Assembly: GCA_965261395.1 (NCBI GenBank)
Contig: OZ253462.1
Span: forward strand, 1,696,001 to 1,760,000
Reading direction: 5' to 3'
DNA: 64,000 nucleotides
Origin: Candidatus Latescibacterota bacterium
GTDB taxonomy: Bacteria; Latescibacterota; UBA2968; UBA8231
The notes under the pieces are model-generated. The model made no database searches. It was not told the origin of the DNA and saw only the letters and a program-made list of their open reading frames with translations. Positions 11,103-61,457 of the stretch are shown here, piece by piece; within the stretch, counting starts at the first letter, position 1, and every line of letters begins with the position of its first letter. Position numbers and translations under genes: made by a program.

Positions 11103-11190
11103 TTTCCGTTGGGGGTGGCCCGGTAGCGGGCCTGAGATTTTAATACCCTTCGAACCTGAACTGGATCGTGCCAGCGTAGGGAAACGGATG
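11103..11190 (+). promoter_or_regulatory. TPP riboswitch (THI element)
   Basis: GGGG...CTGAGA...ATACCCTTCGAACCTGA-CTGGATCGTGCCAGCGTAGGGAA matches the consensus; lies upstream of thiamine genes. Confidence 0.95.
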
Positions 11191-11208
11191 TCGTACGAAC
11201 CGCGTACG

Positions 11209-11242
11209 AACCGCTGGCCCATCTTGGGCAAGCGGTTTTTTT
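11209..11242 (+). terminator. Intrinsic terminator forming the riboswitch expression platform
   Basis: AACCGC-TGGCCCA...TGGGCAA-GCGGTT stem followed by a T run. Confidence 0.8.
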
Positions 11243-11293
11243 GTGCGCCCTCGACGGAATTCTTCCGCAAATGCGAAACGAGGGAGCAGATAT

Positions 11294-13635
11294 ATGAAAA
11301 TTTCAATGCCGTTGGTCAGCTTGCTGACCGGTTTATTGACGCTGCCGGCGCTGTCCTGGGCGCAGGCCGAGGAGGTACCCGGCTTGGTGTTGGATGCGGC
11401 CACGAGTCGTCCTTGGAAGGGGCCAATGTGCAGGTCGGCAACACGGCCACTACCACCGACGCCCAAGGCCGCTTCAAGGTGGAGGCGGCTCCGGGCGACT
11501 CGCTCAACATTTCCTTTATCGGCTACCAGCGCGCACGGGTAGCGGTCGTCTTGCCGCTGGTCGTGGCCCTGGAGCGCGCGATTTTGCAAGTGCCCGAAGT
11601 GGTGGTGGAAGGCGGCTTGGTGCGCCAGCGGCTCGACCGCTTGGCCGCCAGCGTCACGGTGGTAGATGGAGATCGTTCCCGGACCAGCGGGGCCGGGCAC
11701 TTGCAGGACGCGACCCATGCGGTGCCCAATTTGAATTGGGCCGGTGGCTCGTCTCGGCCGCGCTATTTCCAGATCCGGGGCATTGGCGAGCGCAGCCATT
11801 ACGCCGGCGAAGGGCCGCCTAGTTTTTCGGTGGGATTCGTCATGGACGATGTTGACTTGAGCGGCATGGGCACGGCTGGTTTGCTCTTTGACGTCGATCA
11901 GGTCGAAGTCTTCAAAGGCCCCCAGTCAACTATTTTTGGCCCCAACGCCTTGGCCGGGCTGATCAACTTGCGCTCGGCCGATCCCCAGCAGGGGTTTGCC
12001 GGGATGGGCAGCGCCGAGATGGGCAGCGATGGGTTAGGGCGTTTTTCCGGGGCGGTGAACCTGCCGGTCGGGACCGATTTGGCGCTGCGCGTGGGGTACG
12101 AGAATGGCCGTGCCAACGGCTTTCGCAGCAACGCCTTTCTCGACGCCGACGATACCAACGGCCGCCGCGAGCAATTGCTGCGCGCCAAGGTCGGCTGGAC
12201 CCCGGCGGCTGGCCCCGAGGTGTTGGGCACCTTCTTTTGGGCCGATATGGACAATGGGTACGACGCTTGGGTGCCCGACAACAACGAGGATTTGACCACC
12301 TACTCCGACAAGCCGGGCAAGGACCGCCAACAGACGACCGGGGCCTCGCTTAAGAGCACTTGGGGGCTGGGCGCGAGCGGTGCCGAACTGGTGACAATTA
12401 CTGCGTTTTCGCGCAGCGAATTGGAGCACAGCTTCGACGGCGATTGGGGCAACGACGAGTACTGGCTGCAAGCGCCGTACAACTTCGATCCAGACGTCGA
12501 GGGATGGAACTACGACTTTTTCGACCACAATGTGCGAGACCGCACGGTTGTGAGCCAGGAGGCCCGGCTCTTGGTCGAGGAACTAGTGGTGGGAGCCTAT
12601 TGGAAGCGGCTCGAAGAAGAAGACGATGCCGCGGGCTATTTGTTCGGCGGCGACGCCACGGACCTGAACGGGCGCTACGAGATCGACAACTTGGCTTTTT
12701 ACGGTCAGTACGGGCTGGCCTTGGGCGAGGGATTGCGGCTGGAAGTCAATGCGCGGATCGACCGCAACGATACGGTTTATGAAGGAACGACGACGAATTA
12801 CGGGGCCGACAGCACCAGCACCGCTTTCGCTGTCGATCAATGGCTGGGCGGCGGCAAAGCGGCCCTCAGTTACAACTGGCGTCCGGGCCAAACCCTGTAC
12901 GCTTCGGCCTCGCGCGGTTACCGCTCCGGCGGGGTCAACCAGCACCCGTACTTGGCCGCGGAAAACCGCCCCTATGACCCCGAGTACATAGTCAATCTTG
13001 AAATCGGCTGGCGGGGCAGCGGACCGCGTTATTCCACCGGGCTTACCCTATTCCACGCCCTGCGCTCGGACCAGCAGGTCGAACTGTCGAGCCAGCAGGA
13101 TCCCGGCGACCCCAACAGCTTTTTCTACTTCACGGCCAATGCCGTCACAGGCCGCAACAGTGGCATAGAATGGGAGTCAACCGTCCTTCTCCTGCCCCAA
13201 GTCGAACTCTCCGGCTCGCTGGGTCTGCTCACTACTCACATTGATACGTACACCTTTCCCACGGAAGACGGGGAAGTAACGCTGGGCGACCGGGCCGCCG
13301 CCCACGCCCCCAACTACACCTTTAGCTTGGGCGGCGAATACCGCCATCGGTCGGGTTTGGGCGCGCGGCTGGCCCTGACCGGCATGGACCAATTCTTCTA
13401 CTCCGATGGCCACGACCAAGTCTCAGAGCCGTACCAATTGGTCAACGGTCACATCGCCTATCAGTTGGGTACATGGTCTGTGCAGTTATGGGGCCGCAAC
13501 TTGCTCGACGAACGCTATGGGGTGCGGGGCTTCTACTTTGGCTTGGAGCCGCCCGATTACGCCGACAAGCTGTACAAAACCTACGGCGATCCGCGCCAAG
13601 TCGGCGTGCGGCTGACGACGCGATTTGGAGACTAA
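11294..13635 (+). pseudogene. TonB-dependent receptor, probably for thiamine; 1-bp frameshift near 11412
   Basis: Signal peptide MKISMPLVSLLTGLLTLPALSWA (ATG 11294, RBS AGGGAG) is in a different frame from the plug/barrel ORF (QVEVFKGPQSTIFG...GDPRQVGVRLTTRF). Adding one base gives ATSRPLEGANV. Confidence 0.8.
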
Positions 13636-14320: not shown

Positions 14321-15271
14321 TCAGGCCGAGCAGCTAGCGCCTCCGAGGACGCAGAACTGGGCGCAGTGGGGGTGGTTGAGCTTCACCGGGCTCCAGGCTT
14401 CGGCTAGGGTCCGGCCCATCTCAAAGGCCGCGTCGTACGGCAGCAGGGTACAGGGGAGCACGACTGGAGAATCCGCTCCCTTGCGCTTGACGACCATGCG
14501 CGACGAGGCGCACATGATGTCGTCGGGCGACTGGCCGAGAAGGTCCCAGCAGCCGGTGGTGATCTCGGGCACGTCAACGGAGGAGTTCATCTCTGGGAAG
14601 ATGATGAGCTGGCTGGGGTCGATCGCGTCAATGCGCACGCCGAGGTCGGCGAAGAGACGGGCGAAGTCAGCACGCAATTCGCTCTCTTCGTCACCCCAGA
14701 GCGTGCGGCCAGCGGCTGTTAAGCGAAAGCCGCAATCGGAGAGCCAGCGCAAGCCCTCGATCATTGGTGTCCAAGAGTGCTCGCCGCGCTCCGCCTCGTG
14801 CTGCGTCGACTCGTAGTGGTCGATGGAGACGCGGATCGTCAGCCGCTCGCCGTGCGCCTCGCGCAGCCGCAGCAGGCCGTCGGCGCACTTCATCATCGGT
14901 CGCATGGCGTTGGTCAGCACCAAGCTCTCGAAACCCCGCTCCAGCACGTCCTCAAGCATGCCGAGCATCTCGGGATTCATAAAAGGCTCGCCGCCAGTGA
15001 AGCCGATCGCGCGCGTGCCCAGCCGGTCGCGCTCGATCTCGTCGAGATAGGCGGCCACTTCTGCCGCTGTGAGGTACATTAGACGGTCGTTGCGCGGACT
15101 CGATTCGATGTAGCAGTTGGTACATTCTAGGTTGCAAAGGGTGCCGGTGTTGAACCACAAGGTTTCCAGCCGCGTCAACGCTACGCGAGCTCGCTCCTCT
15201 CCGTCGGCGGTGACGTCGGGGTCTTGGAACTTGCGTGGGTCTAGGCGGGGCGGGGCTTGCGCTTGTGTCAT
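14321..15271 (-). CDS. Radical SAM protein
   Basis: CNLECTNC (CxxxCxxC), FTGGEP, Cys-rich C-terminus HPHCAQFCVLGGASCS; start after GGAGG. Confidence 0.9.
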   Translation of the reverse strand: MTQAQAPPRLDPRKFQDPDVTADGEERARVALTRLETLWFNTGTLCNLECTNCYIESSPRNDRLMYLTAAEVAAYLDEIERDRLGTRAIGFTGGEPFMNPEMLGMLEDVLERGFESLVLTNAMRPMMKCADGLLRLREAHGERLTIRVSIDHYESTQHEAERGEHSWTPMIEGLRWLSDCGFRLTAAGRTLWGDEESELRADFARLFADLGVRIDAIDPSQLIIFPEMNSSVDVPEITTGCWDLLGQSPDDIMCASSRMVVKRKGADSPVVLPCTLLPYDAAFEMGRTLAEAWSPVKLNHPHCAQFCVLGGASCSA

Positions 15272-15471
15272 GCTGCCTCCGGTCTGGGTCTCGTCGTCCA
15301 AGGCGACGGAGATGCGGGTGTTGACCGCTTGGGCGTCGTGCGGCTGCACAAAGAGTCGATAGCTTAATAGACTGTCAAGGTAAGCTACAGTTCTGGGAGC
15401 CGTATTTACAGGGGCTATGGGTGGAGGAGGGTTGCGGCGCGATCGTAAAGTAGAGTCTTATCTAGGGCCTC

Positions 15472-15586
15472 CGCGATGGCCTCTCCAACGAGGTGGTGGA
15501 CAACCCGGTAAATGGTGGGACGCGGCGATCTGCTGTTGTGCGTGCAGCGGCAGCGCGCGTCCGGGCAGATCGAGCCGCTGAATTAG
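15472..15586 (+). pseudogene. Degenerate duplicate of the thiN 3' end
   Basis: 15482-15509 is identical to 14199-14226; similarity continues with small deletions to the TAG at 15584-15586. Confidence 0.9.
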
Positions 15587-16245
15587 TCGCTGTCCCAAGC
15601 CAGCGATAGTCGAACCCCAACCTGCCCGGTCCCCAGTTCCAAACGCGGGGCGACCGCCACTCCCTGCTCCTGCTTTTCGTCGCCCAACGCGAGCAACTGC
15701 CACCCAGCGAGGGCAAAGGCCGCCGCAGTCATCCAGCTCATCTGGCTTTGGGTGTCGCGGCTGTTGGCGCGGTCCAAAAAGCGCTCGGCTTCTTGCGGCG
15801 TGCTGGCCTTTTGGTAGCGCCGATAAGCGTCGTCGCCCTGCTGGCGAAAGTCCCAGCTTTTGACGAGCAGTATCGCGCTCCCGCCGCAAAGGGCCCAGCC
15901 CCAAGCGCGGCGCGACGTCATCCAGCCGCGATCTGCGCCCTTTACCGACCATGCCACCGCCCCTAAACCCATCGCCCCCATCACCACCGCCCGCGTGTCG
16001 AATCGCCGGCGCTCGTCGTAGAAGATCTGCGCGTCGCTTTTGGACTCTGCCCGCTCGTAGCGCTCGTCGGCCCGGTTGGCTTCCCGCCGCGCCTGATAGG
16101 CTTCGCTGAGCAGCCAGCCGCCGGCACCCAGCGCGATATAGCTGGCTACTTTGCGCGAGAGGCGCGGACCATCCGCTCGCGCCTCTCCGAGCGACGCCAG
16201 CGTCAGGATGCAGGCCAGTGTTAGAATGCTCCGTCTATTGTTCAC
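15583..16245 (-). CDS. Exported/membrane protein with an internal two-fold repeat; last gene of the export operon
   Basis: Signal peptide, two hydrophobic-RY..A-DT-hydrophobic units, terminal beta strands; start overlaps the TolC stop. Confidence 0.75.
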   Translation of the reverse strand: MNNRRSILTLACILTLASLGEARADGPRLSRKVASYIALGAGGWLLSEAYQARREANRADERYERAESKSDAQIFYDERRRFDTRAVVMGAMGLGAVAWSVKGADRGWMTSRRAWGWALCGGSAILLVKSWDFRQQGDDAYRRYQKASTPQEAERFLDRANSRDTQSQMSWMTAAAFALAGWQLLALGDEKQEQGVAVAPRLELGTGQVGVRLSLAWDSD

Positions 16246-17621
16246 CGCAGGTCTCCGCGCCCTCTGTCGGCGACGGGTTTCCCCACCGCTTGGTCGAGCT
16301 GGGCTAGCTGGATGTGGTAGTTGAAAATGGCCTGGACCAAGCCGCTGCGCGCGGCAAAAAGGCTCGCTTGCGCTTGCAGCCGCTCTAGCTGCGTTCCAGT
16401 GGACAAAGCATAGCGCTCCTGCGCCAGCTTGTAGCTTTCCTCGGCAGCGCTGACCGCGATCTGGTTGGCCTCAATGCTGCGCCGATATAGCTCGATATTG
16501 AGGAAGGCTCTTTTAATATCCAGTGCCACCTGCCGCTTAGCCTGGTCGAAGTCTTCCATGCGCTGGCGGTAATTCAGCTTTTGCGACTTGATGGAATTCT
16601 GGGTGCTCAAGCGGTTGAATAACGGCAGTCCCAAGCTCACGTTGAACGAGTAGCCGTAGTTTTTCAAAAAGAGATCTTCCGGCCCCGCAAACGCCTCGTC
16701 GGCCCGCAGTCGCCAGTTGTAGCCAGTGCTCATGCTCACCGTCGGGTGCAGCAACTCGTAGCGGGTCCCGCGCAGGTCCTCCTCGGCTTGCAGCAGCAAA
16801 AACTCCTGCGACCGCAAGTCCGGGCGGTGTTCCAGCGCCAAGGCCAAGGCTTCCTCGTAGCTCAGCGCGAGCGGTACCATCGCAAATTCCTCCTCGACCG
16901 GCACAATCGGTTCGTAGGTCCGCAAGCCCATGGCAAAGGCCAAGTCGGCACCAGTCACCGCGACGCTGTTTTCGCGGTCGATTAGGTTCGCCCGTGCGCT
17001 GGCCAACGCGGCCCGCTCCGTCAGCACATCCGACAGGGGCACCGAGCGGACCTCGAAGAGCGTCTCGGCCCGGCGCAGGCTCTCCTCTGAGACCCGCACC
17101 TGCTCGGTCTGCACCTTCATCAGTTCAATAGCCTGCAATAAGCTGAAGTATCCCTGCTTGACCTCAAAGACTACTTGCTGCTGGCTCGTACTCAGGTCCA
17201 TCTCGGCCGCCTTGTGCCCCAGTTTGCTCGACGCTAGGGCGGTCCAGTTGCCGCGATTGTACAGGTTCATACTGAAGCCGGTACCCAGCGACTGCGAGCC
17301 GCTGGAGGTGCTCTCGCCGAGGGTAGAGGTGACCTCGCCGGTGGCTGGATCGACAAAGGATCCCTCGCGCGGCCCAGAGACGCTGCGCGACATCCCGTAG
17401 GAGGCGCTGATCGATGGTAGAAAGGCATTGCGAGCGTTCCCGATTTGGATCGCCGCGGCTTCGATATTGGAGCGGCCCTGGATGACCGCGGCGCTCTGCT
17501 CTAGGGCGATGGCGATGCAGTCGTCCATGCTCAAGCGGAGCGCCGCTGGCTCTGTTGCGCCGCTGGGGCGCGTCAGGATTCCCACCACCAGCCAGCAAAA
17601 AACGGTGTGTTTACTTTTCAC
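16242..17621 (-). CDS. TolC family outer-membrane efflux protein
   Basis: LSMDDCIAIALEQ, FLPSIS, VKQGYFSLL, ALEHRPDL, LGLPLFN, AQLDQAVG; GTG start overlaps the upstream stop. Confidence 0.92.
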   Translation of the reverse strand: MKSKHTVFCWLVVGILTRPSGATEPAALRLSMDDCIAIALEQSAAVIQGRSNIEAAAIQIGNARNAFLPSISASYGMSRSVSGPREGSFVDPATGEVTSTLGESTSSGSQSLGTGFSMNLYNRGNWTALASSKLGHKAAEMDLSTSQQQVVFEVKQGYFSLLQAIELMKVQTEQVRVSEESLRRAETLFEVRSVPLSDVLTERAALASARANLIDRENSVAVTGADLAFAMGLRTYEPIVPVEEEFAMVPLALSYEEALALALEHRPDLRSQEFLLLQAEEDLRGTRYELLHPTVSMSTGYNWRLRADEAFAGPEDLFLKNYGYSFNVSLGLPLFNRLSTQNSIKSQKLNYRQRMEDFDQAKRQVALDIKRAFLNIELYRRSIEANQIAVSAAEESYKLAQERYALSTGTQLERLQAQASLFAARSGLVQAIFNYHIQLAQLDQAVGKPVADRGRGDLR

Positions 17622-18330
17622 GACAGCAGCCTTTCTCGCTGCGCCATCTGCCGCAGCCCCGAAAAGAGCAAGAGCGCGCCGCCGAGCACCAGCGTCGCGC
17701 GGTTGAGCGCGACCATCTCGGCCCACACGGCATGGTCCATGCCCAGCGGCAGGCTAAAGGGATTTAAAAAGAGAAAGTAAGCGGTCTCCGCCAGCGACTC
17801 GGCGCTCAGCAACACCGCGACCAGTACTCCCAGCGAAAGCATCCCGGCCGTATTGCTGCTCTTGCAGAGCACCGAAAAGAAGAAGGTCAGATTGGCGATC
17901 AGAAACGCCGGTGCGAACGCATTGAGTCCGCCCAGCGCGAACGGAAATTCGGCGAAGAGGAAATAGGCCGCCGCACTCATGCCCAGCAGGGTCGCCGCCA
18001 ATAGCAGGTAAACGGCCACCATCCGCAGCACCCAGATCCCGTAGTGCGAGGTGGAAGTGCTAAAGAGCGCCTCCAGCGTCCGACGGTCGCGCTCGCCGGA
18101 CACTAGATCCATCGCTAGGTAAATCGCCAAGACCGCGCCGGGGATCTCCACCAGCACGTAGGGGGCCTGCCCGGCGCTGAACCCCTCGTCCGGCCGGAAC
18201 ACCGCCAGTGCGTAGAGCACTCCGTAGTACGCGGCAATGCCCAAGACCATGAGCAGCAGCTTGCGGTGAAAGACGATTTGCGTGCTGAGCCGGCACTGCG
18301 TTACCAAGCTCGCAAACAGAGTGGTCCAAG

Positions 18331-18337
<7 letters not shown>
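17618..18337 (-). CDS. ABC-2 type transporter permease
   Basis: About 6 TM segments, SGERDRRTLEALFS motif; GTG start after AGGAGG. Confidence 0.85.
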
Positions 18338-23018
<4,681 letters not shown>

Positions 23019-23022
<4 letters not shown>

Positions 23023-26000
23023 CGCAGCCGCTCCACGGTCTCGTAGGCCACGGGAATGACCACCAGCGCCATCACCGTCGAGGAAACAAGCCCGCCGATC
23101 ACCGCAATCGCCATCGGTGCCCGCAAACCCGCTCCCTCGCCCAGCCCGACAGCCATCGGCGCCAGTGCCAAAATGGTGGTCGCCGTCGTCATCAGGATTG
23201 GGCGCATCCGATCCTGCGCGCCCTGCAGCACGGCCGCGCGCACCGTCGGCAACTGCGCCCGCAATTGGTTGATGCGGTCAACCAGCACGATTGAATCGTT
23301 GACCGCGATCCCGCCCAGCATGATGATGCCGATATAGGCCATCACGCTCAGTGGCTCGCCCAGCCCCCAGAAGACCCACACCACGCCCACGCCAGCCAGC
23401 GGCACGGTCAGCATCACAGTAAAGGGGTGCAGCAGCGACTCAAAGAGCGAGGCCATCACCATGTACACCAGCACCACCGAGAGCAGCAGCGCGAACTGCA
23501 AGTTGGCAAAGGACTCCTGCCGCTCGCGCTCCTCGCCGCCAATTTCGATCCGGTAGCCATCGGGCAGTTCCATCGCGCCGACGATTTGCTCGACCTGCCC
23601 GATGGCCTCGCCCAACACCGCGCCTTCGACCAGATAGCCGACCACCCGCCCGAGCCGGCGCTGGTCCTCGCGCAAAATCTCGCGCGGCCCTTCGACCAGT
23701 ATGGGATCCGACAAATCGCCCAAGGCCAGAATCGCCCCAGCCGGCGCGTCGATCCGCAACTGCGGCAGCTCGCGCAAGTCGAGGCGCTCGAAACCGACGC
23801 GGATATCGCGCGAGCGTTGGTCTTTGGACAACTCGCCGATTACCTCGCCCGACAGCCGGCGCTCCAGCGCCTGCACGATGGTCGCGACGGTCAGCCCGCT
23901 GGCGACGACCGCGTCTTCGCGCAGCCGCAGGTCGATTTCGGGCTGGCCGCCTTGGAAGTTCGAAGTGACGTTGTACACGCTTGGCAACTCCTCCAAGCGG
24001 GCAGCGAGATCGGCGCACAGGCGGCGCAACACTTCCACCTCGTCGCCGATAATCTCCACTTGGACCGGGGCCGTCCGCTCGCCCAGCACTCCTTCGAGCG
24101 CGGTCTCGTGTAGCTGGTATTGCACGTCTAGTTCGGGGATTTGCGCCAATTGCGCGTCAACCATCTCGACCAGTTGCGGCAGGCTGCGGCGCGTCTCCGG
24201 GGCCAGCGCGACCGACAGCGTGGCGCGGTTGGGTCCGGTAGGGTCGCCGATGTTGGCCAGCCGCGCCGGGTCCACGCCCGCCCGGGCGTACACTGCGGCC
24301 ACATCGTCGCCGCCTACCTCGCCGATGATCTCCCCCACCCGCTTGGCCACCCGATCGGTCAGCTCCAGCCGCGACCCTTGTGCCAGGGACAACTCCACGT
24401 GGAAAAGCCCTTGGTCTTCGCGCGGGATAAACTCGGTGGGGATTGCGCGGGCGATGTAGGCCGTGCCCGCGACCGTTGCGGCCACCAGCAACAAAACCAC
24501 TCCCTTGTGGTCGAGCACCGCGTTGAGCAAAGCGCGGAAGCGCAACCAGCGCTGCTCGGTTGTCGCCCCGCCGCGCCCGCGCAAAAAACGCGAGGTTAGC
24601 ATCGGCACGGTCATCATCGCCACCGCCAGTGACGAGACGAGCGAAAAAGCCACGGTCCAGGCTTGGTCCTTAAACAGTTCGCTGGTCAGCCCTTGCAGGT
24701 AAATAATCGGCAAGAAAACCGACACGGTCGTCAGCGTCGAGGCCATAATCGCCACCCCGACCTCGCTGGCTCCCTTGGTCGAAGCCTGGCGCGCGTCTTC
24801 GCCCCGCTCGAGGTGGCGGTAGATATTTTCAATGACCACGATCGCGTTATCGACCAGCATCCCCGCCCCTAGCGCCAAGCCGCCGAGGGTCATGATATTG
24901 AGCGTCAGATCCTCGAAATACATCAGGGTAAAGGTCGCTAGCATCGAAATCGGAATCGCCAGGCCGATCACCAAAGTCGCCGTCCACGAGCGCAAGAAAA
25001 ACAGCAATACCCCCACCGCCAACACCGCCCCGTGCAACGCCGCCTCTTCGACTTCGGCTACGGCCTCCTCGATAAAGCGCGCTTGGTTTTCAACCACCGC
25101 AAAGCGCAACTCGGGCAAGTCTTGGTCGAGCTCGCCGATGGATTCGAGCACCCGGTCGATGACCTGTACCGTATTGCTACCGGCCTCTTTGTAGATCGCC
25201 AAGCCGATGCACTCGACTCCGTCGAGCCGCACGATGGTTTCCCGTTCCTCGTACTCCAACGCCACCTCCCCCACATCGCGCACGTACACCGGCACCTGCA
25301 ACCCCTCCTCCACGCCTTCCCCCTGCCGCGCCCCGACGATCACATTGCGCACATCCTCCAAGTCTGCCAGCCGCCCTAGCCCCTTGACTTGGTACGATTG
25401 CTGTGCCTCGCGCAAGGTCCCCCCAGACACGTCCTCATTGGCCGAGGTGATCGCCGCGATGACTTGGTCGGCGTCCTGCCCGAAGGCTTCGAGCAGATAC
25501 GGATCCAACGTCACCCGGATTTCTTTTTCTGCATCCCCTTCAATGTCTGCCGAGGCCACCCCATTGAGCGCTTCGAGCTTGGGCTTGACCACGGTCTCGA
25601 CCGCGCCCAACAGCTCGTCGAGGTCGGCCAGCCCGGTCGCCGAGACCGCGATCCGCATCACCGGCAGCGCCTGCGGATCCTCCTGAATGACATCGAGCGT
25701 TTCAATGTCTTCGTCGGTGGCGTACCCCCCCATCTTTTTTTGCACGTCGATCAGGGCAAAATCCATATCCGCTTCCCAATCGAACTCGGCCACCACCACA
25801 GACTGCCCTGAGCGGGTGATCGAATAGACCCGAGCGACTCCGCTGATCGTGCTAATGTCGCGCTCCAGCCGCCGCGTATATTGCTCTTCCACCTCCTGCG
25901 GTGCCTTGCCGGGCACCTGCAAGTCAACCGTGATGACCGGCGTGTGCATGTTGGGCAGCAGGTCGGTTCCCAGTTTGCTTAGGGAGATCGCCCCCAACAG

Positions 26001-26066
26001 CGCCACTGCTAGGGTCAGCATCAGCACGGTGACGGGATAGCGGATGGAAAATTCAGGTAGCGACAT
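23019..26066 (-). CDS. RND efflux permease (AcrB/AcrD/AcrF family)
   Basis: SIRYPVT, GMLVDNAIVVIENI, RMRPILMTT, PMAIAVIGGL. Confidence 0.95.
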
Positions 26067-26076
26067 GATGCGCGTA

Positions 26077-27174
26077 CTATCTCCCCGGCCTGCCCCGACC
26101 ACCCGGCCTCGCAGCCTCTCCCGCCCCGGTCACGCTGACCCGCGTCCGCGACCGCAGGGTCTCGTAATTGCTCGTAATCAATCGCTCCCCTTCCTCCACG
26201 CCGCGCAGCACCTCCGCGAATGTTGCGTCTTCTAGCCCGATCTCGATCTCCCGCATCTGCGCCCGGGCGCTTTCTTCGACGAATACCACCTTGCGATTCC
26301 TCCTCACTAGCACCAACTCGCGCGGCACCAGCACCGCGTCGGCGTGCGACTCGACCACGATCTCGGCCTTGACGAACATCCCCGGCCGCAGCAAGTGCTC
26401 GGGGTTATCTATCGTCGCCACGGCGCGAAAGGTGCGCGTCGCGGCATCCACCACCGGGTCAACGGCTGAGATGTGGCCGACGAATACCTCGTCCGGGTAG
26501 GAGTAATCAACCGCCCGCACGGGCTGATCCAGCGCGATGTGGCGGATTTGCGAGTTGGGAATCTGCAAGTCGAGCAGCACCTTGCTGTAAGCGACAATGC
26601 GGCAGATCGGCGTGCCGGCCTCGACCAGCGTCTGCTCGCTGGCATCGGTGAACTCGCTGAGTACCCCAGCAATCGGGGCGATGATTGCGGTCTTGCCGAT
26701 CTGGACCAAGGCGTCGTCGTAGTCCGACTGCGCGTCGGCCAAATCCTTGCGCGCCGCTTCGACATCGAACTGGGTCACCAAGCCGCGCTCGACCAATACT
26801 TCTTGTTCGGCAAGGGTTTGGCGCGCGTTCTGCACGGCCAGCTTGCGCGCTACCAGCCGGGCACCGACCATCAGTTCCTCGTTGTCGAGGCGGGCGAGGA
26901 CTTGCCCCTGTTGCACGGCCATCCCCTCGGTCGGCTTGCGCCCGTCGCCTAGTTGGACCAGCGACAAAAACCCCCGCGTCTCGGTTACTACCACTGCTTC
27001 CTGTATCGGCCGCAGCGTCCCCGTGGAGGTCACCACCGACTCGATGGTCCCCAACCCCACCGGCTGCACGGTGACCGGGACCGTCAAATCGGCTGTCTGC
27101 TGAACGGTCTCGCTTTCGCAGCCGACTAGCAACAGGAGCGCCCACGCCGAGGCGCATAGAATTGTATGTCGCAT
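26077..27174 (-). CDS. RND periplasmic adaptor (membrane fusion protein), lipoprotein
   Basis: Lipobox LVGC; IIAPIAGV, VDAATRTF, LRPGMFV motifs. Confidence 0.93.
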   Translation of the reverse strand: MRHTILCASAWALLLLVGCESETVQQTADLTVPVTVQPVGLGTIESVVTSTGTLRPIQEAVVVTETRGFLSLVQLGDGRKPTEGMAVQQGQVLARLDNEELMVGARLVARKLAVQNARQTLAEQEVLVERGLVTQFDVEAARKDLADAQSDYDDALVQIGKTAIIAPIAGVLSEFTDASEQTLVEAGTPICRIVAYSKVLLDLQIPNSQIRHIALDQPVRAVDYSYPDEVFVGHISAVDPVVDAATRTFRAVATIDNPEHLLRPGMFVKAEIVVESHADAVLVPRELVLVRRNRKVVFVEESARAQMREIEIGLEDATFAEVLRGVEEGERLITSNYETLRSRTRVSVTGAGEAARPGGRGRPGR

Positions 27175-27248
27175 GTTTTCCTCAGAGCAGGGCAAGCACA
27201 AGGGTTGTCCCTACAAGATTTGTTGGTATAGATGTACGCGGATAGGAC

Positions 27249-30200
27249 TCAAAATACCCTGTTCAGCCAACGGGTAAGAGCGCTCGGTTGCGACCGCTCG
27301 CCACCGCGGCCGCGCCAATTGCCAAAAGACCCCACGTCTTCCTCGTAGGCCGCTTCCGGCTTGTCTGGGTCAACCCAGCGCCAGCGCACGGCATCGGCGT
27401 AGAGTTGGCCGCTGGCTTGGTCGGACAGTTCGACCGAGGCTTGCTCGCCGCCGGCAAAGTGAAACCGTCCCAGCAAGTTCCAGCCGCCCGTGAGCGCCTC
27501 GCTCTTGAGCGCCAGCGTATCGACCTCACCGCCATGCGCCACGGCGAGCGAAAACGATTCGGCCAAGTTCAAGCCAAAGCGCCGACTAAACTGCGACGGC
27601 ACGAAATAGTACGCCACGTCGTAATCGCCGTCCTTAGGTAGCGTCGCCGTCCACACCGCTGGCTGTGCCCCGTCTCCGGGCTGCTTCCAGCGGAAATTGG
27701 TCTCGTAGCGACCGAAGGCAAGGGGCAGCTCCTGCACCTGCCAGTTGTCGCCTTTAAGCCCGGGCCGCAGATAGCGTTGCACCCGGCGGATCGGCATGGA
27801 AAAGCCCTCGTCGTCGTTATCGACTACGATCTCCGAGAAAAAGTTTTCCTCGTCATCGACGACCCGCACATAGGACTTGGGATAGCCGGCGAAGACCTTT
27901 TCGGGGATGCTCAAGGCCGCGACAATCGGCCGCTGGTTTTTGGCCAGAAACGGCTCGACCATCACCCGGAATGGCCGCGCAAAGAGCACCATGGACACCT
28001 CGACCTCCTGCCCGCCCTCAATGGCGATGGCCTTGGCGGCTTGGTCCTCGCGCCCAAGGGCTTGCACTTCGACAAAACCTCGGCCCGGCTCGCCGTTTTT
28101 GACCCGCACGATCACTTGGTACACCACTTCGCCCCAGCCGTCGTCCATCTTCTTGGCCGTCGCTCGGGTCAGGGTATAGCCCGGCACGTGGGTCCCGTAA
28201 ATCCAGTCGTGGACGAGCTGCTGCACGTCGATTTGCTGGCTACCGACTTCCCCATCGGGGACGACGGCCGCCTCAAAATCGGCAAAGGAGACCTGCTGGT
28301 ACTTGTTGTTCTCGTCAAAGGTGCCGATCGCTTCGATGAACCTGTCGGCTCCCACCACTGACTTGATTACCCGGAAAATGGACAGGCTCTTGGCCTTGAG
28401 GATCGCCCGGTAGAGGCTGGGTTCGGCGTCCTTATCCATCTTTGCCAGCGAGTTCTGCTGCATCTCTACCACTAGCGTGTCCCAGACCGGGCCGGTGTTG
28501 GCGGCGGACTGACGAGTCCCGCCGGGGCCGCCACCCCGCGCGCGCATCATGCTGCCGATCATCCGCGCCATCCCGCCGCCCATCCGGCCACCCCAGCGCC
28601 CCGAAAACATCGCCACTCGCAAGTCGGCGCTGACGTCTTCCTGCATGTAGAGCGGCAACCCGCGCGCGACTAGATCGGCGTGCTCGCCGCCGAAGCCGCG
28701 GTCGAAGGACCATAGCTGCACCAGCGGGCTGCGAAACAGGCCGCTGCGCTCTCCTTCGGGACTGAGAAAATCCTGGAAGACCGCCCCGACCAGCACGTCC
28801 TTTTTTATTTGCGCCTCGTCTTGGTTGCCACGCCGCCGCGCCACCCGCGCCTTGAAGTCGCGCTGGAAGCGGTGGCCCATCAACACGTCTTCCTCGATCA
28901 TCAGCACCCCCGGCTGCACGAGGCCGCCGCGTTCCTCCCAGCCTTCGTAGTACCACTGCACCAGAAAGGGTACCTCCACCAGCGACAGCCTCGGATACGG
29001 GTATCGCAGCCCGGTCTCCTGCTCCATCGCGTCGAAAAGCTGGTCGATGGTCTCGATGACTTTGTCGGCAGCGTCGGCGAAAAAGTGCACCGGGCGCAGG
29101 TGGGCCGGGTGGACGTAGAAAGCGAAGTCAACCTCGCGGACCGTGGCCTCGTACACTTCGTAGCGGCCGGCATTTAGCGAGAGCAGGGGCACCGGATACT
29201 CGACCTGCCACTGCGTGCGGACGCGTTCGCCTTGCGGCTCTTTGGCCACCGGCTGCCCTTGGGTGATCACCTCTAAGCCAGCGGGTACCGACACCGCAAT
29301 TTCCGCGGTGGCGAACGAAGGGGGCGGCGGTGCTTGTGGGTGATAAGCTACCCCGGCGATGGGGTACCAGCCGCTGCGCGGGGGTAAGAAGACGGATTCG
29401 TCGCGGATCCAGGCCGTCAGGTCGCCCTTGATAAAGGGCCATTTGTTCTTGCGCAGCCGCGTCTCGTCGCGCAGCAGGTCAAAGCCTTGGCGATCGATGT
29501 CGCCGTCGTAGGTCAGCGTCAACGTTCGCTCGGCACCGGCCGCCATGGGCGCGGCGACCCGGATCACGGCCGCGCCCCGCGTCCACGCCACCGCATGGCC
29601 CGCTGCATCTTGCACCGAGCGCAGCGTCAAGCCGGGGTTGAGCGCAAAAGTCAGCGTGTCCAGTGCGCCGTCGTGGTAGTTGTACAGCCGCAGCTCGGCC
29701 TTGGCCACAAGCGGTGCAGCTTCGCCGACCAACGCGACTTCTAACTCGTAGTGCTCCACCTGCGGTGCGGGCGCGTCTGCGTAGCGATAGTGCTCGGCGA
29801 GCAGGCGCTGGCGATAGGCTTGGTTGGCTTGGTCCTGCGCGTCGATGTGCTGATACAGCCCCACCGCCGCCAACAGCCCGCCCCCGGCCATCCCCCGCCC
29901 GACCCAAACCCATCTCACCGACTGGGACAGGCGCGGATAAAGCTCAATCGACAGGCCAAAAAGGAACAGCCCCAGAGATAAATAAAATAGCCGCTGGTCA
30001 ATCACCCGCGCTAGGTCGCCCACGCCGATTATGTCCGAGTAGAACAGCGGGGCGAAAAAGGCACCAAAGTCCCACAAGCCGCCGTGGGTCTCGCCGAGGT
30101 AAAACAGCACGGCGAGCGCGTAGGCCATCGTCAGTAGAGCGACGGCCGTCTGGTGCCGCAAGAGTGCCCCTAAAAAGAAGGTCAAGGCCGACATGTACAG

Positions 30201-30680
30201 CAGAGCTGGCAGGGTCATCACCAGCAGGTACAGCAGATAGGGCCGGAGCGTGAAGGGTGCGTCGAGTAGGCTGATCTTGGCCGCTTGGATGGCCACCGTC
30301 AAAACCAGCACCACCAAGCTCAAAGTCAGCAGGGCACCGACGACCCCTAGGTACTTGCCGATGACCAGCTCGGCCGTCGCGATCGGCCGCCCGGCGATCA
30401 CCTCGTGGACCCCGGCCCGCTCGTCCGCGGCGCGGAAGTCGCCGACGATAAAGGCGATCACCATCGCCTGCACGTAGCTATAGACGTAAAAGGGGACAAA
30501 TGCCCCCATGCCCAGCGCCGAGCTGAATTCCATCCCCTGGGCCTCTAGCACCGATAGGCCGATGCCAATCAGCAGCGGCAGCGCGATCCCAATGCCGCCA
30601 AGGATGCGGAAGCGGGTGGTCCGCAAGAGCAGCATCCGCTCGTAGCGGGCCACGCCGAGGATGTTGTGGACGGCGCGCAT
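27249..30680 (-). CDS. ABC-2 permease fused to an M1-aminopeptidase-like fold (no HEXXH) and a golvesin/carbohydrate-binding-like C-terminal domain
   Basis: N-terminal TMs with ELVIGKYLG; M1-like HYELEV...LNPGL and YPYPRLSLVEVP; C-terminal VVDNDD...GWNLLGRF...ADAVRW. Confidence 0.8.
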   Translation of the reverse strand: MRAVHNILGVARYERMLLLRTTRFRILGGIGIALPLLIGIGLSVLEAQGMEFSSALGMGAFVPFYVYSYVQAMVIAFIVGDFRAADERAGVHEVIAGRPIATAELVIGKYLGVVGALLTLSLVVLVLTVAIQAAKISLLDAPFTLRPYLLYLLVMTLPALLYMSALTFFLGALLRHQTAVALLTMAYALAVLFYLGETHGGLWDFGAFFAPLFYSDIIGVGDLARVIDQRLFYLSLGLFLFGLSIELYPRLSQSVRWVWVGRGMAGGGLLAAVGLYQHIDAQDQANQAYRQRLLAEHYRYADAPAPQVEHYELEVALVGEAAPLVAKAELRLYNYHDGALDTLTFALNPGLTLRSVQDAAGHAVAWTRGAAVIRVAAPMAAGAERTLTLTYDGDIDRQGFDLLRDETRLRKNKWPFIKGDLTAWIRDESVFLPPRSGWYPIAGVAYHPQAPPPPSFATAEIAVSVPAGLEVITQGQPVAKEPQGERVRTQWQVEYPVPLLSLNAGRYEVYEATVREVDFAFYVHPAHLRPVHFFADAADKVIETIDQLFDAMEQETGLRYPYPRLSLVEVPFLVQWYYEGWEERGGLVQPGVLMIEEDVLMGHRFQRDFKARVARRRGNQDEAQIKKDVLVGAVFQDFLSPEGERSGLFRSPLVQLWSFDRGFGGEHADLVARGLPLYMQEDVSADLRVAMFSGRWGGRMGGGMARMIGSMMRARGGGPGGTRQSAANTGPVWDTLVVEMQQNSLAKMDKDAEPSLYRAILKAKSLSIFRVIKSVVGADRFIEAIGTFDENNKYQQVSFADFEAAVVPDGEVGSQQIDVQQLVHDWIYGTHVPGYTLTRATAKKMDDGWGEVVYQVIVRVKNGEPGRGFVEVQALGREDQAAKAIAIEGGQEVEVSMVLFARPFRVMVEPFLAKNQRPIVAALSIPEKVFAGYPKSYVRVVDDEENFFSEIVVDNDDEGFSMPIRRVQRYLRPGLKGDNWQVQELPLAFGRYETNFRWKQPGDGAQPAVWTATLPKDGDYDVAYYFVPSQFSRRFGLNLAESFSLAVAHGGEVDTLALKSEALTGGWNLLGRFHFAGGEQASVELSDQASGQLYADAVRWRWVDPDKPEAAYEEDVGSFGNWRGRGGERSQPSALTRWLNRVF

Positions 30681-30685
30681 GGCGT

Positions 30686-31558
30686 TCAGGCCGATCCCAT
30701 AAAATAGATATAGGCGTCTTCGAGATTGGGCGCGGTCGGCACGGCACTCGGCGGCGGGGCCGCGTCGCCGACGAGCCTGAGCGCCATGCCGCCGCCGTCG
30801 GCACTGATAGTGACCACGTTAAAGCGGTCGGCGATGGCTTCAAACCCTGCGTCGTCCGTCTGCAAAAGCCAAGTTTTGCCCTCGGCCTTGGCGACGAAGT
30901 CCGCCGGCGCACCGTGGAAGCGCAACCGCCCCTGATGCAATACGGCTAGGTCCTCGCAGGTGCTCGAAATATCGCCGACGATGTGGGTCGAGATGAGAAT
31001 GGTGCGGCTGGCGCTCAGCTTCCCCAAGATGGCCCGGAAGCGGATTCGCTCCTCTGGGTCCAGCCCGACGGTCGGCTCATCGACGATGATGAACTCAGGA
31101 TCGGCCAAAATCACCTGCGCGATGCCAAGCCGCCGCCGCATCCCCCCCGAAAAGGTGCCCGTCTTGCGCTCGCACACCTCGTAGAGACCCACGTCCTCTA
31201 AGGCTTGGGCGATCCGTTCTCGGCGCTGCCGCTGGTCGTGCAAGCCGCCGAGCCGCCCCATGTAGTCGAGGAATTCCCAAGCCGAAAGCTGCGGGTAGGC
31301 ACCAAAGTGCTGCGGCAAGTAGCCGAGTCGCCGCCGCACTTGGGCGCAGTCCCGCTGGAGGTCCCAGCCGTTGATCTCCACCGCACCCGTGCTGGGTGCC
31401 ATCTGGGTGGAGAGAATTTTGATCAGCGTGGTCTTACCCGCGCCGTTGGGTCCTAAGAGACCAAACGTCCCGTGGCGGATCTCCAAGTTCAGGTCGGAAA
31501 GCGCCGGAACACCACCGCGACCGTAGGTCTTGCTCAGGTTTTGGATGCGTATTCTCAA
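30686..31558 (-). CDS. ABC transporter ATP-binding protein
   Basis: GPNGAGKT, FSGGMRRR, IIVDEP, ISTH. Confidence 0.95.
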   Translation of the reverse strand: MRIRIQNLSKTYGRGGVPALSDLNLEIRHGTFGLLGPNGAGKTTLIKILSTQMAPSTGAVEINGWDLQRDCAQVRRRLGYLPQHFGAYPQLSAWEFLDYMGRLGGLHDQRQRRERIAQALEDVGLYEVCERKTGTFSGGMRRRLGIAQVILADPEFIIVDEPTVGLDPEERIRFRAILGKLSASRTILISTHIVGDISSTCEDLAVLHQGRLRFHGAPADFVAKAEGKTWLLQTDDAGFEAIADRFNVVTISADGGGMALRLVGDAAPPPSAVPTAPNLEDAYIYFMGSA

Positions 31559-32043
31559 AAGCCGCCGCCGTCGCCGCCGCCACCACCGCGGGGACCACCA
31601 CCGCCGCGGGGACCGCCCCGGCCGCCGAAGTTCCTGCGGCGCTCTTGCTGCTCTTGCATATGCGTTTTCAGCACCTCGATCTGCTCTTCGCTGAGGGTCT
31701 CGGTAAGTGCCGTCATAATCTTGCCCCGTATCTCTATTTGCTTCTCGCGCAGGGTCTCGCGCAGGGCCCGGAAATCGCCTTCGCCGCTGAACAGCTCACT
31801 CATCATCTGCTGCCGCTCTGTGTAGAGTGGCTTGAGGCTGCCCCGCAGCGCGAGCAGTTGCTCGTCGGTCACGTTGAATTTCTCCTCAAAGGCCAGCAGA
31901 CCGAAAATCTGGTCCGGCGACATGCCACCACCGCCGCCGCGACCACTCCCGCGACCACTGCCGCCCGGCTGTGCCTCAAGCGACAAAATGCTCAACAGAC
32001 CAATACCCAAGGCCCAGAGGGCCGACTTGCGAATGCGCTTCAT
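31555..32043 (-). CDS. Exported helical protein (Spy/CpxP-like) with Gly/Arg-rich tails; first gene of the export operon
   Basis: Signal peptide MKRIRKSALWALGIGLLSILSLEA; VTDEQ and LSEEQ motifs; RBS GGAGG. Confidence 0.75.
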   Translation of the reverse strand: MKRIRKSALWALGIGLLSILSLEAQPGGSGRGSGRGGGGGMSPDQIFGLLAFEEKFNVTDEQLLALRGSLKPLYTERQQMMSELFSGEGDFRALRETLREKQIEIRGKIMTALTETLSEEQIEVLKTHMQEQQERRRNFGGRGGPRGGGGPRGGGGGDGGGF

Positions 32044-32220
32044 ACAATCCTCCACGTAAAAGGGTTGGGGTAAAATACTAAAATTAGACAAACCATCGCC
32101 CCAACGCATTCCCGCCGTTTGTCCTTTTGCCAATAAACTGCGCCGTGCCGCGGGCGGGCGGCGCTGGCGAAATTTTGGTGGGATGAGTAGGTTGTCTGCT
32201 GCATAGAAAGGAGAGCCACC

Positions 32221-33297
32221 ATGAAGAAACACACAGTAGCTATCATTGGCCTCGGGCGCATGGGCAGCACCATCGACGACGAAGGGCACGGCGACTTGCC
32301 CTATTCGGTCGCGGCCGCGACCAAGGCGAGCGAGCGGTTGGAACTCGTGGCCGGAGCGGACCTCCTGCCGGATAAGCGCGATGCTTTTCAAAGCCGCTGG
32401 GGAGCAGCCGTGTACGAGGACTTCCGCGACATGATCAGCCGCGAAGAGCCAGACCTCGTGGCCATCTGCACAGCGGCCTGTTTGCCCAAGCCCGCTAGGG
32501 AGGCCCCGGATGCGAGCTTTCGCGGCGATTCGCACGCCGACCTAGCGGTGGCAGTGGCCGATCTGGGCGTGCCGATGATCTTCCTCGAAAAGGCCATGGC
32601 CAGCTCCATGGAGCGCGCCGACGAAATCCGCGATGCCGTAAAGCGCAACAACGCACTCTTCAACACGGGCGTCCTGCGCCGCTTTGACAACCGCTACGAG
32701 GTGGTCAAAGATGCGGTCGCCGCCGGTCAGGTCGGCGAGGTCCGGGCCGTGATTCACTACGCCAGTTCCAGCCTGATGCACGGACACATCCATTCGATCG
32801 ACACAGTGTCCTATCTCATCGGCGACCCGGCGATTACAGCCGTGCGCGGCGAGCTGCTGCCCCGAGGCTTGCAAGTCGAGGGCAATCACATTCCGGCCGA
32901 TCCCTTGGCTACCTATCAACTGCGCTTTGCCAACGGCGTCGAGGCGTGGTCAATTCCCGCGGCCCCGTGGGAATTCGAGGTCATCGGCTCGGAGGGCGCA
33001 ATTCGCTCGTGCAACAATGGGGCCGACGTTTCACTGCGCCGGCCCGGTGCCGTGCAAGGACGGAGCGCCTTGTGGGAGGAGGCACCCGTCGATCCGGTGA
33101 CGCCGCGCAGTACGACGCAGTGCTGCTTGGAGGATTTGGTCGCGGCGCGCGAATCCGGCCAACCCACGCGCGGCCACATCGACGTGACACACCACATCAC
33201 AGAAGCCACCATCGCCGTCGCCGAAAGCCATCGCCAAGGCGGCGCTTGGGTAGAACTGCCGCTGCCTTCCCGCGACCTGTACATCTTTCACATTTAG
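32221..33297 (+). CDS. Gfo/Idh/MocA family oxidoreductase
   Basis: AIIGLGRMG, FLEKAMA, HGHIHSID. Confidence 0.88.
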   Translation: MKKHTVAIIGLGRMGSTIDDEGHGDLPYSVAAATKASERLELVAGADLLPDKRDAFQSRWGAAVYEDFRDMISREEPDLVAICTAACLPKPAREAPDASFRGDSHADLAVAVADLGVPMIFLEKAMASSMERADEIRDAVKRNNALFNTGVLRRFDNRYEVVKDAVAAGQVGEVRAVIHYASSSLMHGHIHSIDTVSYLIGDPAITAVRGELLPRGLQVEGNHIPADPLATYQLRFANGVEAWSIPAAPWEFEVIGSEGAIRSCNNGADVSLRRPGAVQGRSALWEEAPVDPVTPRSTTQCCLEDLVAARESGQPTRGHIDVTHHITEATIAVAESHRQGGAWVELPLPSRDLYIFHI

Positions 33298-48200: not shown

Positions 48201-48344
48201 GAAAATGCAAATGACGAGCGCGAATCCCGTGCGGGAGAGTAAGGCGTTCTCTTTGCGGTGCCGAGCGGTAAGCACGTCACGCACTCGCTCGCCCGGCGGC
48301 GTTGACATGGCGGGACCATGCGGTAAATAATCGGTGAGACGCAT
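36294..48344 (-). pseudogene. Giant (~4000 aa) repetitive adhesin: cadherin-like, FN3 and Calx-beta repeats plus a C-terminal autotransporter-like barrel; one in-frame TAA at 47280-47282
   Basis: ORFs 47280..48368 and 36294..47201 share a frame and read VQIRAEND*GESQWS, versus VQIQAKNDEGTSMWS in the second FN3. WLARFGRT precedes a barrel ending in terminal W. Exact start uncertain. Confidence 0.85.
40150..42250 (-). repeat. Near-identical ~969-bp tandem module repeats inside the giant adhesin
   Basis: Sequence at 40264 recurs at 41233; antisense ORFs recur at offset 969 (40147/41116, 40578/41547, 41018/41987). Boundaries approximate. Confidence 0.9.
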
Positions 48345-48594
48345 TATTATCCCTAAGGGGCCTGGCAAAGCAGGCCCCTATCAATGGGGAAATATTATAG
48401 GGGCTTGAGGGGAACGACAGCCTGAAGGCGATTGCTTGACAAACGCCTTCAGCACCGTGGGGGGGGGAGGATACTCTAAAAATATACTACATAAGATGCT
48501 ATATGGAAAGGAGATACTACATATTGGATTGGACGATATATCGTCTAAAAACAATCAGATTGGCCCATAGACGACTTGGTAACAGGTAGTTATA

Positions 48595-51351: not shown

Positions 51352-51392
51352 AGTACTAATCAGCTCCATCTCAACGTGCCTCACGGTTTGGA

Positions 51393-61453: not shown

Positions 61454-61457
61454 GGCG

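Follow-up and report, generated by a model that had tools for sequence, protein, structure and literature searches.

The DNA described here (the window) is a stretch of 64,000 nucleotides from contig OZ253462.1 of a Candidatus Latescibacterota bacterium (assembly GCA_965261395.1), the minus strand of which carries nine co-oriented open reading frames (ORFs) at 15583-32043, designated g1 to g9 in transcription order (Table 1). Judged from sequence, the resistance-nodulation-division (RND) pump encoded by g4 (adaptor), g5 and g6 (RND subunits) and g8 (outer-membrane factor) appears to be covalently tied to an ATP-binding cassette (ABC) transporter of the ABC-2 (type V-like) class, through a nucleotide-binding domain (NBD2) located at the C-terminus of g6. 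The RND::ATPase fusion, a membrane insertion inside its ATPase and a permease (g3) with a peptidase fold lacking its active-site motifs make up a real, conserved and uncharacterised hybrid architecture. On balance it is somewhat probable that the encoded proteins form one envelope-spanning export machine with two engines, in which an ABC module (g2, g3, g7 and NBD2) feeds the RND pump.

An earlier note on this DNA had described nine co-oriented genes with overlapping starts and stops, and ORFs were found at the places it gave. Stop and start codons overlap by 4 bases at g9/g8 (16242-16245), g6/g5 (23019-23022) and g2/g1 (31555-31558), while g3 and g2 are separated by a 5-base gap. Seven of the gene identities proposed in that note were recovered as matches to named families; the description of g1 as Spy-like was not, as g1 has no Pfam match and the resemblance is a language-model lead only.

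The ATPase of g6 and its membrane insertion

Pfam matches to ACR_tran (residues 4-1027) and ABC_tran (residues 1291-1431, 97 bits) were found in the single frame of g6. NBD2 is 46% identical over 272 residues to the free-standing ATPase encoded by g2 (NBD1), and both carry Walker A, the Q-loop, the signature FSGGM, the Walker B Asp-Glu pair and the H-loop. A stretch of g6 reading IRLQTLTKIYG corresponds to IRIQNLSKTYG in the first strand of g2, and lies approximately 170 residues ahead of the remaining ATPase.

The C-terminal 533 residues of g6 from 20 genomes were aligned (alignment A1), and an AlphaFold model was built on this alignment (pLDDT, the predicted local distance difference test, 79.6). 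Invariant in all 20 sequences (A1 numbering) were K82, Y84, Walker A and B, the signature and the H-loop, together with W94, W123, W143, G229 and R230 in the insertion; W5 and W37 were conserved in the preceding extra-helix segment. The model places two long helices after the last transmembrane helix (TM12) of the RND part, followed by strand 75-84, the insertion helices, the ATPase core and a C-terminal domain. The insertion, which according to the model splits the first beta hairpin of NBD2 between the first and second strands, begins with a basic amphipathic helix; four long hydrophobic helices and a short one follow. Since the membrane helices number two and then four, both pieces of the ATPase would stay cytoplasmic, and basic stretches read from the sequence after each helix group fit this placement.

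NBD2 looks to be an active ATPase, its catalytic motifs being invariant. The nearest folds identified with Foldseek were TM_1403 (4yer), NosF (7osf/7o0y) and ABCA1/7, all of which are ABC-2-type ATPases. The ATPase of an ABC-2 system is normally free-standing or joined to its own permease, and the fused NBD2 departs from this norm both in its membrane insertion and in its RND partner.

Conservation and distribution of the fusion

The earlier note had the ATPase covalently tethered to an RND subunit, and this was found in every full-length relative. The best 120 relatives of g6 residues 1030-1563 all carry both PF00873 and PF00005, at identities down to 39%, with a length of at least 1480 amino acids in 108 of them. 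A second profile (A4), comprising the linker and the insertion only, was searched against 1.84 billion representatives and matched 151 proteins (97 at E ≤1e-10 and 40 at E ≤1e-30). Among the 150 A4 matches listed, 22 are at least 1500 amino acids long, and the module lies at approximately residues 1018-1306 in all 22, behind a part of RND length. Free-standing linker-insertion-ATPase proteins of 293-933 amino acids were sought, and only 8 proteins were found, these being near-identical pieces or contig-end partials; many of the short A4 matches are pieces that may be incomplete.

Genomes were scored as carrying the fusion on a strong match to the C-terminal 533 amino acids of g6 (E ≤1e-90 in the window's phylum and ≤1e-85 in samples from three other phyla). 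Within the window's phylum, 81 of 167 other genomes carried the fusion, which was distributed by family as 20/75 (f1), 19/22 (f3), 28/31 (f4), 1/1 (f7) and 13/13 (f10), with 0/25 in nine other families. The samples from other phyla were started from Gemmatimonadales, Acidobacteriota and Krumholzibacteriia records, and at least 3 of 301, at least 16 of 301 and at least 25 of 201 genomes carried the fusion; these counts are lower bounds, as 4-7 candidates were scored per genome. Open frames of approximately 1570-1600 amino acids were observed for the fusion in four phyla. Contig-scan patterns derived from A1 (Walker A and H-loop peptides) matched generic ABC ATPases only (L051-L130).

The RND::ATPase fusion is, by these comparisons, both real and old. 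That it should be an artefact, whether from a missed stop, a frameshift or mis-assembly, or else a gene in decay, seems exceedingly improbable: the frame is open over 1563 codons, 108 of the 120 best relatives agree in length and domain order, the fusion occurs in four phyla and the catalytic motifs are invariant. What could be taken to favour such an origin comes from close relatives: the gene is found as separate pieces at 93-98% identity (P0121-P0125), and the fusion match contains one stop in each of three genus relatives (G117, G121 and G122). These split or stop-bearing copies could reflect long-read frameshift errors or real strain decay.

The RND subunits

Both RND parts look functional, as they are of full length and have kept the TM4 Asp and TM11 Arg residues. 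ACR_tran is matched over positions 3-1020 of 1021 in g5 and 2-1018 of 1021 in g6, and the two RND parts are 32% identical to each other. Motif positions were taken from an alignment to MdtB (9lyq_B) and from motif scans. g5 has Asp-Asn in TM4, Asn-Asp in TM10 and Arg in TM11, and these motifs were present in all g5 orthologues recovered; g6 has Asp-Asn in TM4, Asn-Asn in TM10 and Arg in TM11, in 21 of 21 sequences. A loss of proton coupling in the RND part of g6 was considered and rejected: the Asp-Asn/Asn-Asn pattern is equally present in two RND genes of this genome that are not fused, and is therefore read as a subfamily trait. Against the NCBIfam model RND_permease_2 (cut-off 1250) both g5 (614 bits) and g6 (528 bits) score below the cut-off.

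Two more tandem RND pairs were observed in this genome (G000:C1:6339755-6346106 and G000:C1:2733197-2740123), so paired RND subunits are common here.

The ABC partners g2, g3 and g7

DrrA and GldA were the best NCBIfam models for both ATPases of the cassette; g2 scored 193 bits against DrrA and 180 bits against GldA, both under the NCBIfam cut-offs. A weak match of GldF to g3 was also found. g7 scored 26.2-27.1 bits against ABC2_membrane_2 (cut-off 27.2), and its orthologues matched ABC2_membrane_2 in 9 of 20 cases, ABC2_membrane_3 in 8 of 20 and no other family. In g3, residues 52-196 gave weak ABC-2 matches (16-18 bits), ABC-2 models being matched in 7-8 of 16 orthologues with no rival family. 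The membrane parts of g7 and g3 are homologous (hhalign probability 66%, E 5.5e-5, for the g7 profile against the membrane part of g3). Complex prediction for g3 residues 1-300 with g7 (score 0.00, mark 0.32) was carried out with controls not folded, and carries no weight either way.

Beyond its membrane part, g3 matches Golvesin_C in 16 of 16 orthologues (56.5 bits in g3) and, weakly, Peptidase_M1 in 10 of 16. The AlphaFold model of g3 (pLDDT 75.8) consists of an N-terminal bundle of membrane helices, one more long helix, a beta domain, a thermolysin-like helical domain and two beta domains, and the extra long helix would bring the chain to the outside. Foldseek matched the model to IRAP, ERAP1/2, APN and F3 at E values of 5e-19 to 2e-15 over approximately 635-710 columns. 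A profile of the 16 orthologues matched, within M1, the N-terminal domain and the closing stretch of the catalytic domain; it also matched a domain without catalytic function at the C-terminus of xanthan lyase 6f2p (E 4.7e-10), which corresponds to Golvesin_C. Conserved residues of g3 include H527, E553, Y560, E569 and E597.

The earlier note had proposed a pseudo-peptidase in g3, and this agrees with an M1 fold in which HExxH and GxMEN were each found in 0 of 16 orthologues. Among the best 120 database relatives of g3, GxMEN was found in none and HExxH in one, at an unrelated place. As both motifs are missing, g3 is not a peptidase by motif criteria, and it is best described as a putative permease bearing a dead peptidase and a domain for which glycan binding is probable. 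Source names for its relatives are 'hypothetical protein' or, at JGI, the NosY group.

A g2-g3 fusion suggested by ORFs of 1440 and 1421 amino acids in genus g18 (L038/L046) was rejected, as a stop closes g2 and the start of g3 is in a different frame; what looked like one long ORF is upstream sequence that happens to stay open where the DNA is rich in GC. A 1707-amino-acid ORF apparently joining g6 and g7 in L038 looks to be the same kind of artefact, the g6 frame stopping at approximately 3986, upstream of g7.

Elsewhere in the window (60650-63253, minus strand) an ordinary ABC-2 system was observed, consisting of one ATPase (ABC_tran) and two different ABC2_membrane_6 permeases, and thus an example within the window of a single ATPase gene serving two unlike ABC-2 permeases.

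Adaptor, outer-membrane factor, g1 and g9

The adaptor g4 scored 184.6 bits against RND_mfp TIGR01730 (NCBIfam cut-off 94.9). The outer-membrane factor g8 matched OEP twice, and scored 168.7 bits against the TolC subfamily model, under the cut-off of 225. None of the nine proteins matched FtsX or MacB_PCD in Pfam.

No Pfam match was found for g1 even at E values up to 1, the LTXXQ model included. Its language-model neighbours include LTXXQ clusters (0.86-0.88), a lead only, and g1 is possibly of the LTXXQ (Spy/CpxP) type. The repeat which the earlier note had seen in g9 was confirmed, its two halves being alike (24% identity over 74 amino acids, E 6e-6), and no family was matched. Orthologues of g9 were found in L031 and, weakly, in L048 only, among the 20 loci described below.

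Gly/Arg-rich tracts of the GGRGG type were observed at both ends of g1, at approximately residues 694-731 of g3 and at approximately residues 640-670 of g6. All fall in parts expected to be extracytoplasmic, and the tract in g3 has a pLDDT of <50.

A conserved six-gene core

Gene order was assessed in 20 loci of 20 kb each from the window's phylum. The order g4-g5-g6-g7 was present in 20 of 20 loci and g3 in 19 of 20, the exception (L045) being truncated by a contig end. g2 was present adjoining g3 in 18 of 20; L045 ends at the contig edge and L047 is without g2. In 10 of 20 loci (for example L041, OEP 165.9 bits) g3 and g4 flank an outer-membrane protein (OMP) gene; in the window, L031 and L048 the OMP gene is downstream of g7. 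In a second phylum, all three fetched loci have the order g2-g3-OMP-g4-g5-g6-g7.

The conserved core consists of six genes, g2 to g7, plus an OMP gene of variable position, while g1 (3/20 loci) and g9 (2/20 loci) are lineage-specific. ABC and RND genes co-occur in other genomes and keep their order across phyla, so that the refutation named in the earlier note (the two kinds of gene not occurring together) did not come about. Conservation of all nine genes, for which that note had suggested a neighbourhood search, holds in part: the g2-g7 core extends across phyla, and the nine-gene block is present within the genus.

One presence/absence block in the genus

The cassette is flanked by a radical-SAM gene at 14321-15349 (left of g9) and an oxidoreductase-like gene at 32221-33297 (right of g1). 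In 15 of the 17 genus relatives having both flank genes, these are 125-217 bp apart, and none of the 15 has the fusion by the search with the C-terminal part of g6. The distance is 16.9 kb in the window genome and approximately 17.0 kb in G142, in which all nine genes are present; in G129 the flank genes are far apart. Alignment of three empty sites with the window placed the left limit of homology at 15381-15411 and the right limit at 32153-32160, the empty sites having 9-70 nt between the two. In this genus g1 to g9 act as one insertion/deletion unit.

The fusion is present in 6 of 30 genus relatives, and by the same search the other 24 lack it. Some proteins from another phylum are 55-62% identical to those of the window, compared with 42-46% for genera of the same family. 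This patchy distribution within the genus, together with cross-phylum identity above that within the family, suggests lateral transfer of the cassette.

Proposed mechanism and alternatives

A single-machine mechanism is plausible, and we infer the following steps for it. The ABC module (g2, g3, g7 and NBD2) would be docked against the RND trimer, and ATP hydrolysis would let it bring the substrate to the entry that the RND subunits present to the periplasm or the outer leaflet, the substrate being either pulled from the inner membrane or captured on the dead-peptidase arm of g3. The RND pair would then expel it through g4 and the OMP (g8), driven by the proton gradient. In NosDFY, ATP is used to move a periplasmic partner and not to carry a solute across the membrane; as its ATPase is among the nearest folds, capture on the g3 arm would be no less likely than extraction from the inner membrane, and by this analogy capture is slightly preferred. 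The peptidase-like cavity and glycan-binding-like domain of g3 suggest that the substrate may be a molecule bearing a peptide or glycan, either secreted or belonging to the envelope, in preference to small drugs.

A more specific version can be offered tentatively, as a possibility on which we would not yet rely. It would comprise a heteromeric RND trimer with one fused NBD2 paired with a free NBD1, exactly one g3/g7 heterodimer thereby being docked via the six extra helices, and an ATP-moved g3 arm which captures a peptide- or glycan-bearing envelope molecule, or extracts it from the inner membrane, and loads it into the proton-driven RND subunits for expulsion through the outer-membrane factor. 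A defined subunit ratio is known for a heteromeric RND pump, MdtB2C. For g5 and g6, adjacency with a 4-base overlap and joint conservation were observed, and the two may form a heterotrimer.

Several points weigh against the single machine. Contact of g2, g3 and g7 with the RND subunits, and the hand-over between the two engines, are steps that we infer, and an RND trimer and an ABC dimer do not match in stoichiometry. Obligate ABC heterodimers often carry one degenerate site, and both ATPases here have fully canonical sites, which gives no sign of a heterodimer; the two ATPases and two permeases may form one heterodimeric transporter, as the earlier note inferred, or two homodimeric ones. Neither g5 nor g6 carries in full the AcrB-type proton relay, which we take to consist of Asp-Asp in TM4, Lys in TM10 and Arg in TM11; the TM10 Lys is replaced by Asn in both. 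The g8 query found no OMP gene within the 20-kb loci L032-L037 and L047, g2 is not beside g3 in L047, and in G082 and G085 the g2-like genes are remote from the fusion. The structure models were built on shallow alignments (20 sequences for the g6 C-terminal part and 16 for g3), and the carriers named by their sources (Latescibacterota, Gemmatimonadota, Handelsmanbacteria, Acidobacteriota, KSB1, Calditrichota and others) are all metagenome bins.

Two engines might alternatively share one duct with no hand-over, the ABC-2 and RND parts each exporting their own substrates and the fusion serving co-localisation in fixed proportion. Such an arrangement would fit cassettes that have a single adaptor gene and no more than one OMP gene, and also the complete motifs of both engines, and ABC-2 systems with an adaptor exist (E. 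coli YbhGFSR). Co-localisation alone, however, needs no conserved four-helix insertion with invariant Trp and Gly-Arg residues, and it leaves the absence of a free-standing form of this ATPase unexplained, for which reasons this is regarded as rather improbable. It is also conceivable that NBD2 is an ATP-dependent regulator or gate of the RND pump, in which bound nucleotide would shift the six extra helices packed on the transmembrane domain of RND-B and thereby switch or assist the proton-driven cycle, with g2, g3 and g7 forming a separate, ordinary ABC-2 transporter. The insertion does adjoin the adenine-contacting K..Y at the end of strand 1, and hardly any loop separates RND TM12 from the first extra helix. 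This is nevertheless judged quite unlikely, since g7 always follows g6 (20/20 and 3/3 loci), an ABC ATPase normally needs a second ATPase for ATP hydrolysis, and the paralogue g2 is kept in 18/20 and 3/3 loci.

Relation to known systems

The RND half of the cassette resembles MdtABC-TolC and MuxABC-OpmB in having one adaptor, a TolC-family factor and two adjacent RND paralogues (32% identity, 4-base overlap); among solved structures the RND part of g6 is matched best by MdtB 9lyq_B, and MdtC/MdtB models are among the best NCBIfam matches. In contrast to MdtABC, g6 is extended by 533 residues, comprising six membrane helices and an ABC ATPase, scores fall far under the curated cut-offs, TM4 carries Asp-Asn and not Asp-Asp, and the TM10 Lys is Asn. 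The ABC half resembles NosDFY(L), GldAFG, DrrAB and YbhGFSR: the ATPase fold is nearest to NosF/TM_1403, there are two different putative ABC-2 permeases, as in YbhSR, and one of them would carry a large periplasmic module, much as NosY carries NosD. It differs from these in the fusion of an ATPase to an RND subunit with a membrane insertion, and no curated model reaches its cut-off; whereas NosD is a separate beta-helix protein, the periplasmic module here would be a dead M1 peptidase fused to the permease.

As in MacAB-TolC, genes for an adaptor and a TolC-family factor share the operon of an ATP-driven inner-membrane part, and mechanotransmission to a periplasmic domain is possible; the permeases here appear to be of the ABC-2 type, unlike MacB, which is a four-helix type VII protein with its own periplasmic domain. 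The g3 module shares the multi-domain fold of the M1 aminopeptidases (APN, ERAP1, IRAP and tricorn factor F3) but lacks their HExxH-E zinc site and GxMEN, is approximately 10-12% identical to them, has a putative ABC-2 anchor and is followed by Golvesin_C.

RND and ABC tripartite pumps count as distinct classes, each with its own source of energy, and a two-step efflux relay has long been discussed. If the single-machine reading is true, this dual-energised exporter would be the first known single complex coupling an ATP cycle with a proton-motive cycle. A conserved covalent RND-ABC union in at least four phyla would offer a natural experiment on how inner-membrane transporters feed RND pumps, on how a dimeric ABC engine can be matched to a trimeric RND engine, and on the role of pseudo-peptidase domains in transporters. 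A family of approximately 150 clusters with a diagnostic ATPase insertion is defined for structural work.

The separate parts are of known kinds (an MdtBC-style RND tripartite pump, a NosFY-, DrrAB- or YbhFSR-style ABC-2 transporter and an M1 fold), although none attains a curated equivalog cut-off. The claim in the earlier note that no characterised system matches this locus held against Pfam and NCBIfam names, source names and the papers found. No named Pfam or NCBIfam model covers the union of RND::ATPase fusion, ATPase membrane insertion and dead-peptidase permease, product names of the fusion relatives are generic only, and no paper describing the architecture was found; the passages seen of a review on tripartite pumps (PMC8277102) contain no RND-ABC union.

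Coordinates and expression

Table 1. Features of the cassette. Coordinates are those of the window; residue numbers refer to the encoded protein, except that model helices and strands of g6 are given in the numbering of its C-terminal part.
Feature	Coordinates	Strand	Evidence
g1, small exported protein, 162 aa, Gly/Arg-rich ends	31555..32043	-	ORF; no Pfam match; orthologues in 3/20 loci
g2, free-standing ABC ATPase (NBD1), DrrA/GldA-like	30686..31558	-	ABC_tran 108 bits; catalytic motifs complete
g3, ABC-2-type permease (transmembrane domain 1, TMD1) + putative dead M1 module + Golvesin_C domain, 1143 aa	27249..30680	-	Pfam, AlphaFold model, Foldseek
g3 TMD1, ~residues 1-300	29781-30680	-	Weak ABC-2 matches
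g3 extra helix leading to putative extracytoplasmic dead M1-aminopeptidase module, ~residues 301-930	within 27249..30680	-	Foldseek
g3 Golvesin_C / carbohydrate-binding-like beta domain, residues 988-1099	27384-27719	-	Pfam
g4, periplasmic adaptor (membrane fusion protein, MFP), RND type	26077..27201	-	TIGR01730; HlyD_D23, HlyD_3
g5, RND-A permease, 1027 aa	23019..26102	-	ACR_tran 770 bits
g6, RND-B::ABC ATPase fusion, 1563 aa	18331-23022	-	ACR_tran + ABC_tran in one frame
g6 RND-B part, residues 1-1030	19933..23022	-	ACR_tran 633 bits; alignment to MdtB 9lyq_B
g6 two extra membrane helices, residues 1032-1097, straight after RND TM12	19732..19929	-	Model helices 2-31, 35-67; hydrophobic peak 39-57
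g6 first ATPase beta strand with A-loop-like K..Y, residues 1105-1114	19681..19710	-	Model strand 75-84; aligns with g2 residues 3-16
g6 ATPase insertion, ~170 residues (1115-1284)	19171..19680	-	Model helices 89-106, 114-137, 141-167, 169-191, 194-218, 232-243
g6 ABC ATPase core (NBD2) + C-terminal regulatory-type domain + stop codon	18331..19170	-	ABC_tran residues 1291-1431
g7, small six-helix ABC-2 permease (TMD2), ~230 aa	17618..18310	-	ABC2_membrane_2/_3 in part of orthologues
g8, TolC-family outer-membrane factor	16242..17726	-	OEP twice, 215 bits
g9, 220 aa, signal-like N-terminus, internal duplication, no family	15583..16245	-	ORF; half-versus-half likeness
Presence/absence block holding g1-g9, ~16.7 kb	15412..32152	.	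Empty-site alignments

The true starts of g7 and g8 probably lie downstream of the first start codon; the earliest possible start of g7 (18547) would overlap g6, and the true start of g8 is probably near 17621-17624. A consensus promoter scan of 15300-32300 gave one promoter-like site, on the wrong strand (2.7 expected), and a consensus terminator scan of the same interval gave 20 sites compared to 13.1 expected, none of them placed informatively.

RNA-library contigs (Logan; 4 libraries from 2 studies) were found to be 90-99% like parts of the operon and come from relatives of the window organism. In X17, 28 of 30 operon bins were covered, the two uncovered bins being 17656-18219 and 19348-19911, and some contigs span the g4/g5 and g1/g2 junctions. 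A depth peak at 18784-19347 is due to ATPase motifs conserved in many organisms. These contigs are weak evidence of expression, DNA carry-over remaining possible.

Neighbouring genes

The earlier note had regarded many neighbouring genes as damaged, and this was not borne out: among the 10 neighbouring ORFs tested, 8 gave family matches that span almost the full profile, and the other 2 are without a family. The sole possible break seen is an in-frame stop at 47280-47282, which separates a 3661-codon frame from a preceding 365-codon cadherin/fn3 frame on the minus strand (36294-48377). The longer frame contains nine Calx-beta stretches and fn3, and is adhesin-like; the region may be one adhesin gene of approximately 4027 codons broken by one stop, or two genes. 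Adjoining it is a gene for a Met-zincin (DUF4953/DUF5117) protein (48646-51396, minus strand). On the other side, approximately 2 kb left of the cassette, a TonB-dependent receptor with CarboxypepD_reg is encoded at 11095-13632 (plus strand).

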